Position numbers and translations under genes: made by a program
Origin: Octopus vulgaris
Lineage: Eukaryota
Direction of reading: 5' to 3'
Assembly (NCBI GenBank): GCA_951406725.2
Contig: OX597818.1
Span: 31,744,001 to 31,808,000 of the forward strand
Length of the DNA stretch: 64,000 bases
In this document: positions 29,879 to 63,477 of the stretch, piece after piece
Layout of the letters: every line of letters starts with the position of its first letter
Numbering within the stretch: the first letter of the stretch is position 1
The notes under the pieces: generated by a model
Seen by the model: only the letters and a program-made list of their open reading frames with translations
Told to the model about the DNA's origin: nothing
Database searches by the model: none

Positions 29879-30225
29879 TGCAGCTACGTTCTGAGTTCAA
29901 ATTCCGCCGAGGTCGACTTTGCCTTTCATCCTTTCGGGGTCGATAAATAAAGTACCAGTTACGCACTGGTTTCGATGTAATCGGCTTAATCTGTTTGTCT
30001 GTCCTTGTTTGTCTCCTCTGTATGTAGCCCTTTGTGGGCAGTAAAGAAACAGGTATTTCGTCTGCCGCTAAGTTCTGAGTTCAAATTCCGCCGAAGTCGA
30101 CTTTGCCTTTCATCCTTTCGGGGTCGATTAAATAAGTACCAGATACGCACTGGGGTCGATATAATCGACTTAATCCGTTTGTCTGTCCTGGTTTGTCCCC
30201 TTTGTGTCTAGGCCTTTGTGGGTAG
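29879..30225 (+). mobile_element. SINE family B, head-less tandem dimer
   Basis: Two ~180-bp tandem units, each with B box GAGTTCAAATTCC, Meta-like core and CCTTTGTGGG tail. Confidence 0.9.
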
Positions 30226-30329
30226 TTATAGGTTCATTTAGTAAAGTAGCTTTAAATATATTATGCCTGAGGAACCGCTACATTAACGCTCGTTCTGCTA
30301 AAATACAGGAATAAGTTTCCATTATATAC

Positions 30330-38176: not shown

Positions 38177-38497
38177 TTATATATTAACAGTCACACACAC
38201 TCGAATCTCCTGCAAATTAACATGGGTTCCCATGACGACAATTTAAGCTTCTTTTGATTACGGTATCTTTGACCTAACGAGTAGCTAGCGGATTATCCCT
38301 CGTTCCGGTAATTACTACCTCCGTGGTTCTGCTAGCGAAGAAACATATGTAACCTGGATTTTATCTACACCGTTCCTTAATTTTGGGTTTCTATTCGCAT
38401 ACACTACAGCCCCAGCTGCTAACCGTAAACTATAAAACAATTTTATCAGCTTATCGAACTTCGCTATGGGAAAAAAATTACAACATTCTACGTGAAA

Positions 38498-39250
38498 ATT
38501 ATTTACATTATTTACATTATTTACATTTGACGATATTTGTCCTCATCTTGTTTGGACGCACTAGTATACCAATAAAAAGTTGATGGAAATGTTGGCCTTC
38601 TGTGTAGAAACTACCTATTTCAGTATAGACACTGATATATATCGACAAGAAGAGGGTTTAACTATGGGTTCGCCATTATCACCGATAATAGCCAATGTAT
38701 ACATGGCATACGTTGAGAATTTGGCTTTAGGATGAACACCACTAAAACCAACTGCTGCGATATGTTGATGACACCTTTATTCTCTGGCCTCACCAGGAAG
38801 ATGTCCAAGTGCTGTTAGATCATGTGAACTCAATAAAGACATCCATACATTTCACAATGGAAAAGGAAAAAGGCAATGAGCTAGCATTCCTGGACGTATT
38901 AATAACACGCACCAAGAATGGATTCAGGTCATCCATATACCGCAAGCCGACCTTCATTGGACGATACCTTAACTCCAACTCACACCATCCATACAGTGTA
39001 AAGAGAGGAATTGCTCAGTGCCTAAAACTTCGAGCAATGAATATAAGTAATGATCAAGATACCCACCACGAAGAAATGATCAAGCTCAGTAACAATCTAT
39101 TAAGCAACAACTACCCCCAAAAACATACTATCTACTCCAATTATGAAGAAAAGAGGGGATGAAACCGATAAACAGTCCACAGTTTGTCTACCCTATGTGA
39201 AAGGCCTCTCCGAAAAGATACAAAAGATATGCGGCTCATATGACATCAGC
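38498..39250 (+). mobile_element. Penelope-like element (Poseidon-type) remnant: inverted terminal segment (38498-38554) fused to a 5'-truncated RT pseudogene (38555-39250)
   Basis: RTSIPIK/LMEMLAFCVETTYF..YRQEEGLTMGSPLSPIIANVYM, LRYVDDTF, IHFTMEKE..LAFLDVLI, IYRKPT..RYLNSNSHHP, VCLPYVKGLSEKI; stops and frameshifts; GIY-YIG part missing. Confidence 0.92.
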
Positions 39251-39277
39251 CAAGTAAAAGAATAGAATATATATATA

Positions 39278-40180
39278 CAAAGTGGATGGAAAAACAGTCA
39301 TTAGAAGTTGCTTATAAAATTTTAAATATTACAGGAAGTCATGACGAAAGCATTTTTTAAACAGACAACTCTAATGGGGATATTTTTAATTTTCTTATTT
39401 TAACTTATTTCTTATTTTTTATTCTTCAGATGGCCAGTCGCTTGACTCTTTTGGGTGCGAGCTGAGACAGTAGCACGCTATGAAGTGTGGAATTCCATTA
39501 TTTTGGTTCAGAGATGGTGGCCTGCATGGAGCGTTAAGCATGCAACACTACGTCATGTGACAATAAAAAGTTGTCATGGAAAGCAGATGACCACGGGCTC
39601 TGTGACCGATGCAAGAAGTGGTCGTCCAACCACATCCCGATCAACGGAGAACGTGGTAACTGTTCAGGAAATGTTTAATCACAGTCCGCAAGAATCAACA
39701 GATCAAGCACCACGTGAAAGTGGACTAACAAAATACACAAAATCGAACTGTGTTGCATTAAGAATTGTATTTTCGTCCATGGGAAACCCATTACATGCTG
39801 GAGTTAAAATCTGAAGACTGTGACTGCAGAGGTTTAGGAATCCAGAACTCTAAGAAGTCCAGATCTCATTCTATGTGATTTTTACCTGTGGGGTTACATA
39901 AAAGAGGTGTACAAGACAAACTCGCACACTGGAGGACTTGCAGACACGGATTCAGGAGGTTCTCAATGATATCCCAGACGACATCTTTCAGAATGTTATT
40001 CATTTCATCCCTGGCCGTTTGAGGAAACTGGTTGACACCAACGGAGCTGACGTTGAAATATGAAGATTTACTTTCATTTTCCCATGTAATAAGGAACATG
40101 TATAATTTATTTCAATAAATTTTAAAAAGAAATATGGATTTTATTACAAATTTTCAATGCCTACATACTTTTTATCCACC

Positions 40181-40183
<3 letters not shown>
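39278..40183 (+). mobile_element. Internally deleted Tc1/mariner-superfamily element (DUF4817-type HTH, DD41D-like)
   Basis: N-terminal ...TTGSVTDARSGRPTTSRSTENV...SPQEST; C-terminal RSPDL../DFYLWGYIKE; degenerate TIRs TACAAAGTGGAT / ATCCACCCTGTA. Confidence 0.8.
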
Positions 40184-40230
<47 letters not shown>

Positions 40231-50575: not shown

Positions 50576-50704
50576 ATTTGTATGTATGCATATATGTATG
50601 TTTTCTGCATATTCATGAGTTTGTGTTCATATTTGTGTGTTTGTATGAATGTGTGTATTTGTGTGTGTGTACATGTTTGAATGTGTCTATGTGTATGGGT
50701 TTGT

Positions 50705-50991
50705 GTGACTATGTAGTTGCGTCTGTTATGTATGGATGTGTGTCTCCATATGTGTCCTTATGTGTGTGTGTGAAGTGTGCATCTGTGTATATGGTCATGT
50801 GTTTCAGTCTTCATCAGTGTATGCGTGTATGCGTGTATGCGTGTGCGTGACTATGTAGTTGCGTCTGTTATGTATGGATGTGTGTCTCCATATGTGTCCT
50901 TATGTGTGTGTGTGAAGTGTGCATCTGTGTATATGGTCATGTGTTTCAGTCTTCATCAGTGTATGCGTGTATGCGTGTATGCGTGTGCGTG
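50705..50991. repeat. Exact tandem duplication, 142-bp unit x2
   Basis: Units start at 50705 and 50847 and appear identical. Confidence 0.95.
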
Positions 50992-51412: not shown

Positions 51413-51467
51413 TTATTGATGTACCTGAAGAGACCCAGAATGGGTCGAAACGTGTTGTACCCAATAA
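51413..51467 (+). ncRNA. Minimal type I hammerhead ribozyme with intact core
   Basis: TTATTG.GTAC-CTGAAGA-GACCCA-GAA-TGGGTC-GAAAC-GT-GTT-GTAC.CAATAA; 6-bp stem II, extended stem I, overlapping AATAAA. Confidence 0.75.
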
Positions 51468-54789: not shown

Positions 54790-55001
54790 AAGGCTGCGAG
54801 CTTTCAAACTCGTTAGTACGTCGAGCAAAACGTTTAGCGGTGTTTCGTATGTCTTAAAGGCGTTGAGTTCAAATTCCGCCGACGTCAAGTTTGCCTTTCA
54901 TCCTTTCGGTGTTGATAAAATAAGACCCATTTGAACACTGACATCGATGTAATCGACTTACCCCTCCCCCAGAATTGCAGGCATTATTTCATAATTTGAA
55001 G
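54790..55001 (+). mobile_element. SINE family B, degenerate
   Basis: Head, B box, TTTGCCTTTCATCCTTTCGG core. Confidence 0.85.
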
Positions 55002-55193
55002 CCGAAATCAAATTCCTTTGTGAGTAACTAGTTGACCACCGAGCTATGGTATCACAAATACTGTGAGTACGGAAGGAAATATATTAAATCCAGCTTGAAG
55101 CCGAGATATACTCCACCTTTTACCTAAATATCTCACAAAGTCTCTGAAGATTAGAAGCTGGACAGAAAAGAAAAAAATACAAGTTAAATTGCT

Positions 55194-55380
55194 ACAGTTC
55201 TATATTTAAGAGATGAGGAATTATGTTCATTATTTACATTATTTACATTCGACAGATATTTGTCCTCATCTTGTTTGTTGTTAACACAACATTTCGGCTG
55301 ATATTCCCTCCAGCCTTCTTCAGGTGTCTTGGGGGGGGGGGATTTCGAACCTGGGTTCTCATTCCTAAGGTATTTTTCGA

Positions 55381-55419
<39 letters not shown>

Positions 55420-55510
55420 GATTATTATTATTATTGTTCAGGTCACTGATTGGACCGGAACTCGGAATCTTGGTGTTAGTAGCTCGCGCTCTTAACCACT
55501 ACACCATATG
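55194..55510 (-). mobile_element. tRNA-headed SINE (family D) with internal (AAT)n, hammerhead ribozyme and Penelope-derived 3' end
   Basis: A box TGGTGTAGTGG, degenerate B box GAGTTCCGGTCC, (AAT)n, hammerhead at 55283-55328; 55229-55277 matches 38507-38554. Confidence 0.8.
55283..55328 (-). ncRNA. Minimal type I hammerhead ribozyme
   Basis: GACAC-CTGAAGA-A-GGCTG-(10 nt)-CAGCC-GAAA-TGTT-GTGTT; stem I GACAC/GTGTT, stem II GGCTG/CAGCC; GAAAT probably a CpG transition from GAAACGTT. Confidence 0.75.
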
Positions 55511-55559
55511 TAGCACTAAATTATTTAAGTTCATTTCGGCAAAAGGCTACCAAGGATAA

Positions 55560-55577
55560 ACCTCCTCCTCCTCCTTC

Positions 55578-59889: not shown

Positions 59890-60148
59890 TGTGTGTGTGT
59901 GTGTGTGTCTGTGTCTGTGTCTTTGTGTGTTTGTGTATGTTTGTGTGTTTGTGTTTGTCCACCCAACATCACTTGACAACCGCTGCTGGTTTGTTTACGT
60001 CCCCGTAACTTAGCGGTTCGGCAATAGAGATCGATAGAATAAGTACTAGGCTTACAAAGAATAAGTCCTGGGATCAAATTGCTTGACTAAAGGTGGTGCT
60101 CCAGCATGGCCACAGTCAACTGACTGAAACAAGTAAAAGAGTAAAAGA
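59663..60148 (+). mobile_element. SINE family A (tRNA head, CORE-like block, internal microsatellite, CR1-like tail), full length
   Basis: TGGCTGTGGCGTAAG...GGTTCAGTCCC...CCTTGAGCAAGTGTCTT...(TA)n(TG)n...CAGCATGGCCACAGTCAACTGACTGAAAC-(AGTAAAAG)n. Confidence 0.93.
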
Positions 60149-60179
60149 TAGATACGTACGTATATACATACACAAACAC

Positions 60180-62947: not shown

Positions 62948-63440
62948 GCCGCATGTGTGGCTGTGCGGTATGAAACTTGCTTCTCAACCATATAGTTCCG
63001 GGTTCAGTCCCACTGCGTAGCACCTTGGACAAGTATCTTCTACTATAGACTCGAGGTCGACAATGGCCTTGGAAGTGAATTTGGTAGACGGAAAATGAAA
63101 GAAGCCCGTCGTGATATATATATATTTATATATGTGTGTGTGTGTGTGTTCGTGTGTCTGTGTTTGTCTCCACCACCATCACTTGACAACCGATGATGGT
63201 ATTTTTACGTCCACGTAACTTAGTAGTTCGATAGAAGTAGTTATTACTACTTCTATCGAACTACTAAGTTACGTGGACGTAAAAATACCATCATCGGTTG
63301 TCAAGTGATGGTGGTGGAGACAAACACAGACACACGAACACACAAAGGCTTACAAAGAATAAGTCTTGGGGTCGATTTGTTCGACTCAAAGCGGTGCTTT
63401 ATCATGGCCGCAGTCAAATGATTGAAACAAGTAAAAGAAT
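62948..63440 (+). mobile_element. SINE family A containing a perfect internal inverted duplication (63143-63344)
   Basis: Matches 59663-60148 apart from the hairpin insert. Confidence 0.93.
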
Positions 63441-63477
63441 ATATATATATACATAATGCATATATATGTGCCTGTAA

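Follow-up and report, generated by a model that had tools for sequence, protein, structure and literature searches.

Penelope-like elements and short repeats with ribozymes

The closest described systems are Penelope-like elements (PLEs) of the Penelope/Poseidon type, such as rotifer Pen2a_Av, anole PAc and D. virilis Penelope, which are cited here, like the other published systems below, from extracts of the respective accounts. They join an RT to a C-terminal endonuclease (EN) and have no Zn-finger linker. Their pLTR is characterized by a hammerhead, an optional tail of 30-40 nt and an inverted, 5′-truncated copy at the 5′ end. The tail of rotifer Pen2a encodes the first residues of the ORF. 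In the anole element PAc, the ORF starts at helix II of the hammerhead and the enzyme cuts ATT sites (PMC11167929). Its reverse transcription starts in a stem-loop, 111-118 nt after helix II, the tail lies between two such start sites, and cleavage was unnecessary for insertion in an in vitro assay (PMC11167929). PLE endonucleases carry a C-x-C motif followed by later histidines, and an extra finger in the linker belongs to Neptune and Nematis (PMC8557442).

Hammerheads also occur in short repeats. Minimal hammerheads cleave poorly and as a dimer (PMC4209133), and tRNA-related repeats of schistosomes bear hammerheads (PMC6765202, PMC2770079). Mobilisation of retrozymes by PLEs has been proposed, and mobilisation of ribozyme repeats by Penelope has been argued from their co-occurrence and from likeness to the pLTR (bioRxiv 10.64898/2026.07.22.740005; PMC7761336).

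The window analysed here, the whole 64-kb stretch of octopus DNA, is rich in microsatellites and contains a Penelope-like RT fragment preceded by a short segment, which recurs at the 3′ end of a small element near 55 kb. In all likelihood, positions 38497-39249 represent the Penelope arrangement with an inverted, tail-less 5′ pLTR, and the shared sequence is the pLTR end of this family. The octopus family is like the Penelope/Poseidon elements in its RT with C-terminal EN, in the absence of a Zn-finger linker, and in a pLTR with a predicted hammerhead, an apparently optional tail and an inverted, 5′-truncated 5′ copy; as in rotifer Pen2a, the tail appears to encode first residues of the ORF. 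It differs from them in that the tail is 25-26 nt long, in that the inverted piece measures only 58 nt and is joined directly to the RT with no direct pLTR between, and in the decay of the octopus copy, of which the 3′ half is missing.

The 55-kb element has partial counterparts of its own. Like Sm-alpha and Sj-alpha of schistosomes, it appears to be a tRNA-related, Pol III-type short repeat with a hammerhead. The schistosome repeats, however, often stand in tandem and have canonical hammerheads, whereas the octopus element is a single unit with a minimal one; furthermore, its terminal tail can be traced to a particular autonomous family, while the extracts name no partner enzyme for Sm-alpha. 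With the non-LTR retrozymes and the non-autonomous derivatives of Chlamys/Penelope it has in common that it is non-coding, related to a pLTR and proposed to be moved by PLEs. It contrasts with the tandem arrays of retrozymes, which are said to lack promoters, in being a monomer with a tRNA-like head, and the Chlamys derivatives differ in having no canonical hammerheads. SINEs are usually tied to LINEs. Classical SINE-LINE pairs show, as does the octopus pair, a tRNA-like head and a 3′ end common to an autonomous retroelement, but here the shared end would come from a Penelope pLTR, and neither poly(A) nor a simple repeat forms a 3′ tail.

An inverted, probably terminal segment abuts the RT

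Positions 38497-38554 (58 nt, minus strand) align to 55219-55277 on the same strand. In this alignment 55 of 59 letters agree (E 1.5e-19 for a search of the window), and each stretch is the sole strong second match of the other in 64 kb. The segment contains three 9-mer units and lacks both the hammerhead and the 25-nt end piece of the 55-kb element. On this identity and on joints to RT at two other positions (see below), it is taken as an inverted, 5′-truncated and tail-less pLTR end. Its inversion, with the 3′ end pointing outward as a sequence-only reading of this DNA had proposed, follows from the 55-kb element lying on the minus strand while the RT lies on the plus strand. The RT also starts immediately after the segment, as that reading had it: from the segment to the first RT position, 38556, the gap is 0-1 nt. 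This value is set by the upstream RT consensus, according to which 38554 fits both sides of the junction and 38555 neither. The consensus comes from 8 contigs of run X2 (agreement 0.9) that have a loose end before 38556; ahead of R-T, they extend the family RT by K-L-V-T-D-T-H-L-K-E.

Two details of the earlier description needed correction. The peptides RTSIPIK and LMEMLAFCVETTYF had been quoted together as RT homology; they sit in different frames, with a frameshift near 38575. Similarly, the extension held to be absent from the segment is absent, but it measures 25-26 nt and not ~35: the part that 38497-38554 lacks is 55218-55194, that is 25 nt, or 26 with the next A. A length of 36 nt results only when measuring from the last perfect 9-mer, and four letters of the extension as formerly quoted are actually common to the segment.

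When upstream RT was looked for to the left of 38497-38554, none was found. This speaks against insertion of a SINE into the RT, in which case the segment would have RT sequence on both sides. The left flank (38200-38496, no strand assigned) is an unrelated, older multi-copy repeat, found in many contigs of all four public runs described below, and would have been the host of the Penelope insertion at an A/T-rich site. In 27 contigs of run X3 the sequence runs past 38475 with different letters, and the second half of this repeat was not found in the window. Contigs of the public runs also contain several opposite-strand joints between the repeat's own parts.

The RT fragment and its relatives

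The fragment at 38556-39249 (plus strand) is a decayed Penelope-like ORF that spans the RT core, the thumb and the start of the RT-EN linker and is truncated at both ends, as judged from homologs, a tree and a weak RVT_1 match. It consists of at least four pieces, with breaks near 38575, 38733, 38753 and 39114-39160. RVT_1 is the only domain that Pfam names in it, at E 0.0015 and 0.029, below the cut-off. Homologs of the window RT comprise 91 longer proteins and 130 of similar length, the best being 60-78% identical, and the fragment begins at residue 437 of the 806-aa relative P0098. In a tree of 23 rows and 88 columns, which contained no named PLE reference, the window RT pairs with P0202 of Octopus sinensis, its closest named protein (76% over 87 columns), with a support of 99/96 and apart from the sister families.

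RT homology stops at 39249, where 55-66 contigs per run go on into the RT-EN linker; this copy has therefore lost its 3′ half. The GIY-YIG domain that the sequence-only reading had expected of the family is seen in P0202, which runs on into an EN domain of this type (recognized by its motif; Pfam did not name the domain), and the loose end behind 39249 translates to the next residues of this same protein. Full-length homologs, such as P0098, have a C-terminal domain with C-x-C and later histidines. Inspection of P0098, P0018 and P0202 revealed a CCHH motif in the EN and no CX2-5CxxC finger in the RT-EN linker. Judged from these sequences, the family, as distinct from this copy, would match the EN+ PLEs of the Penelope/Poseidon clade, with an RT followed by a C-terminal GIY-YIG EN.

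The Penelope copy is cut off at 39250-39270 (plus strand), a 3′-end scrap of another short repeat that is 84% identical over 37 letters to 63428-63461 and more weakly similar to 60130-60154. Further on, an element of ~920 nt (39266-40190) has imperfect inverted ends in TA repeats and broken frames. A motif in these frames resembles one of Tc1/mariner transposases; Pfam gave no support for a transposase-like remnant at 39266-40190.

Joints and end points in public runs

Contigs from four public runs (four organisms, three studies) were aligned to 38200-39300 at 80% likeness. Run X1 provided two further joints between segment and RT, 38554 -> 38694 and 38554 -> 38761, among the 12 of 33 rows listed. 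In these joints, 5 and 20 letters between the segment and the RT continue the repeat towards the hammerhead; the joints therefore belong to separate insertions, which broke at other points and kept a little more of the inverted repeat, and their orientation is that of the window. Both family-specific joints come from this one run, none being among the rows listed for the other three. Neither joins of the segment's other end to RT nor opposite-strand joins of segment and RT were present among the rows listed (15 of 84; 12 of 33). The window's own 38554/38556 junction is not among the pieces listed from the runs, which has no bearing on its presence there. One joint, 39106 -> 38600, first resembled pLTR letters and was set aside when it aligned by eye to 38561-38599 as an RT duplication.

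The repeat has two discrete end points, 25-26 nt apart, in all four runs, and the window segment stops at the inner one. Among the loose ends listed (24 of 1842 rows), the tail precedes 38497 in 114-134 contigs per run in the four runs. Unrelated A/T-rich flanks precede 38498 in 83-108 contigs per run, in four of four runs (agreement 0.43-0.45, rows listed); in such tail-less ends an inverted 5′ end and a plain 3′ end are indistinguishable, and contig counts are not frequencies. Behind 38554, the listed loose ends of the four runs continue into the hammerhead side of the repeat, with the core side intact.

Chance contacts of segment and RT are not rare in principle, because the segment is far deeper than the RT in the runs (0.3-1.5 million versus 3-263 thousand, depth not being copy number). 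Fusions of this kind do occur at the locus, since the RT fragment also abuts a piece of a different repeat at its 3′ end. It could thus be asked whether the segment is a scrap of a very abundant repeat, placed next to the RT by independent insertion or later deletion, with the Penelope family having another pLTR. This account is highly improbable, given two more joints at the same segment end and in the same orientation, no RT on the segment's far side, a repeat with the anatomy of a Penelope pLTR, and sister families that show the same fusion with their own versions.

Inverted repeats fused to ORFs in sister families

Among 308 RT-related proteins, eight have at their N-terminus a terminal repeat read in antisense, which runs directly into the ORF, with fusion points at residues 15, 279, 370, 427, 483, 507, 512 and 549 of P0098. 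All eight chimeric proteins belong to sister families, the pLTR of which is related to but different from that of the window (~50-60% alike in translation). Two of the eight, P0258 and P0317, are included on the strength of a match confined to the portion of the sister repeat that precedes the hammerhead. P0192 covers a whole small insertion, composed of the inverted repeat, an RT piece and then the sense tail peptide, and so gives an indirect view of a direct pLTR in a sister family. Another protein of this screen, P0147, had entered via the translation of a different repeat and was dropped.

In P0271 the sister repeat, read in its sense frame, finishes with A-S-S-Q-K-F-R-Q-L, residues 15-23 of the P0098 ORF are T-S-S-Q-K-Y-R-Q-L, and the window tail reads N-S-S-S-L-K-Y-R-T-V. 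With the sense frame of the repeat, none of 13 candidate proteins links the repeat to an ORF. The antisense frame yielded 19 protein matches, none with ORF homology; by eye, 18 of these represent the sister family's repeat and one (P0270) that of the window family. In P0124, the inverted repeat includes tail sequence, at least as far as the codons for K-F-R, and inverted ends are therefore not always tail-less in the sister family. Separately, in the spurious translations P0262-P0280 two or three units of the sister hammerhead repeat follow one another head-to-tail, and head-to-head pairs also occur (P0271, P0276), like short retrozymes.

The three known junctions of the window family all use this version of the repeat and the sister RTs use theirs, a pattern most simply explained by inversion of each family's own end. 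An account in which the inverted piece was copied from SINE RNA or sister-family RNA bound by the same enzyme is accordingly highly unlikely, although the segment seems to be present in more non-autonomous copies than there are copies of the RT, and Penelope enzymes act in trans on pLTR-bearing RNAs in the rotifer case, as far as the extracts describe it. The family's own pLTR may then differ somewhat, with the enzyme still being the partner.

The inverted, tail-less pLTR put forward by the sequence-only reading is thus supported by the two additional joints, the two end points in four runs, the sister-family fusions and the absence of RT on the far side. If 38497-38554 is the inverted end of an insertion, then what the two loci share is the end of the pLTR that belongs to the window's RT family. 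Positions 38497-39249 would then constitute the 5′ part of one Penelope/Poseidon-type insertion. By analogy with the anole element, reverse transcription would be initiated inside the stem-loop, which follows the pLTR hammerhead at a distance of ~100-125 nt, and could begin at one or the other of two sites ~25 nt apart. One cDNA would have begun at the inner, tail-less site and run only 58 nt, while the other would have run from the 3′ end of the element back into the RT gene. The truncated 5′ ends of the two cDNAs would have been joined head-to-head with an overlap of 0-1 nt; the structure is observed, and from it we infer the two-cDNA mechanism. The 3′ half of the copy would have been lost afterwards.

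Anatomy of the 55-kb element

The 55-kb element (55516-55194, 323 nt) lies on the minus strand, as do all its parts, and is organized into a tRNA-like head, (AAT)n, a linker, a minimal hammerhead, a stem-loop and a 25-nt end piece. The head (55441-55516) has A-box-like (55506-55496) and B-box-like (55463-55452) motifs, assigned by eye with the box consensus sequences; ARAGORN found no tRNA match at 55441-55516 and Rfam none in 55150-55560. An (AAT)n spacer (55383-55435; 17.7 copies by Tandem Repeats Finder) separates the head from the pLTR-derived part. Within the latter, a second B-box-like motif, again by consensus, is located just upstream of the hammerhead (55351-55340).

The predicted minimum-energy fold of 55283-55328 fits a minimal type I hammerhead, with a 5-bp helix I, a CUGAAGA core, an unpaired A and a 7-bp helix II, and without helix III. 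The fold of 55332-55278 is not much better than those of shuffled sequences (z -1.76; 13 of 200 shuffles do equally well). At 55291, T replaces the C of other copies. Rfam gave no hammerhead match at 55150-55560 and, at the gathering score, no match to any family in the whole window. The hammerhead unit stands singly at this locus, with no tandem. The hammerhead may be a passenger for insertion, because insertion in the anole assay did not need cleavage.

A stem-loop around the 9-mer units (55208-55272; 8-bp stem in the centroid fold) is a candidate RT initiation site, a role suggested by the anole element; as a fold it is no better than shuffles (z -1.17; 23 of 200). Translation of the optional 25-nt tail (55194-55218) gives S-S-L-K-Y-R-T-V, which resembles the start of related ORFs; between 114 and 134 contigs of each run contain the tail consensus. 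The tail peptide aligns to the sister-repeat peptide in P0271 with a score of 50 and weakly to residues 4-21 of P0098, the latter score being reached by 27 of 2000 shuffles for the first 40 residues and by 149 of 2000 for the whole protein. The distance from the start of helix II to the end of the tail is 123 nt, as compared with 111-118 nt to the RT start in the anole element.

A possible SINE paired with a Penelope family

The 3′ end of the 55-kb element is common to an autonomous retroelement, as seen in the 55 of 59 letters and the joints to the RT family. On sequence grounds, 55516-55194 was most likely inserted by the RT/EN of the window family, because its end coincides with the outer site, the one with the tail, and a tail of the LINE type is missing. 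By ending exactly at this site it would carry the family's cis signal, and the tRNA-like head would supply a Pol III promoter. These features incline us, by a modest degree, to an abundant family of tRNA-headed octopus SINEs that is mobilised by a Penelope-like element and not by a LINE, having captured the pLTR hammerhead, the RT-initiation stem-loop and the tail. Insertion of this family with the two end points typical of Penelope is part of the same reading and shares its modest standing.

The label SINE rests on the single headed copy in the window. It is conceivable, though rather less than probable, that the element is not a SINE family and that a short tRNA-derived repeat received, in its (AAT)n tail, an insertion of a solo pLTR or of a non-autonomous Penelope copy without a head. 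Penelope-type enzymes favour ATT sites and microsatellites in the published extracts, the run search and alignment covered the 3′ part only, and the sister-family repeats occur as headless tandem units (P0262-P0280). Against this chance landing, the head and the pLTR part occur once each in 64 kb, adjacent and on one strand, and a 6-nt direct repeat flanks the whole of 55516-55194, 3 nt off the 3′ end (ends picked by eye; 61 of 3000 random pairs are as good). The composite of head, (AAT)n and pLTR is presumably a common octopus repeat. Its 3′ part (55190-55385), the part that was queried, is present in 22 of 24 listed runs from 13 studies; the runs with a small share (termite gut, X20-X23) are given no weight as evidence. 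A 21-nt pattern from the shared segment had no matches in metagenome, genome and viral contigs.

Octopus SINEs named OK, OR1 and OR2 were reportedly described by Ohshima and Okada in 1994. Extracts of two later papers refer to that work (PMC4758252, PMC10886601). In O. vulgaris, SINEs account for 11.6% of the genome and the most recently active families are unclassified (PMC13282606). SINEs and Penelopes appear as separate entries in two surveys of octopus repeats (PMC13282606, PMC8967140), and the extracts of the first mention neither hammerheads nor ribozymes in the text and neither hammerhead nor pLTR in the supplement. The octopus literature covered here contained no tRNA-headed SINE ending in a Penelope pLTR; subscription papers and Repbase/Dfam were beyond its scope, and the element may already be catalogued.

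The inverted end is textbook Penelope anatomy, and the value of the locus lies in the pairing of SINE and Penelope. A headed short element whose end coincides precisely with the cis signal of a family that can be named would be a natural enzyme-substrate pair for an in vitro Penelope assay, and many genomic ends are available for mapping the two initiation sites. If the Penelope-driven reading is true, a large share of octopus SINE DNA could be the product of a Penelope enzyme, and part of the octopus SINE fraction could be reassigned.

Other repeats in the window

A second, unrelated minimal type I hammerhead is predicted by its fold at 51421-51460 (plus strand), where Rfam Hammerhead_1 scores 23 bits (E 0.0021), below the gathering score of 34. 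It is probably the solo pLTR of another Penelope family. At 29879-30226, a tandem of 1.9 copies of a 184-nt unit has a tRNA-like start, with a related copy, found by eye, near 54800-55040; it probably represents two adjacent copies of another SINE. Finally, 50691-50991 contains a 142-nt unit repeated 2.1 times at 98% identity, which is either a recent local duplication or an assembly artefact.
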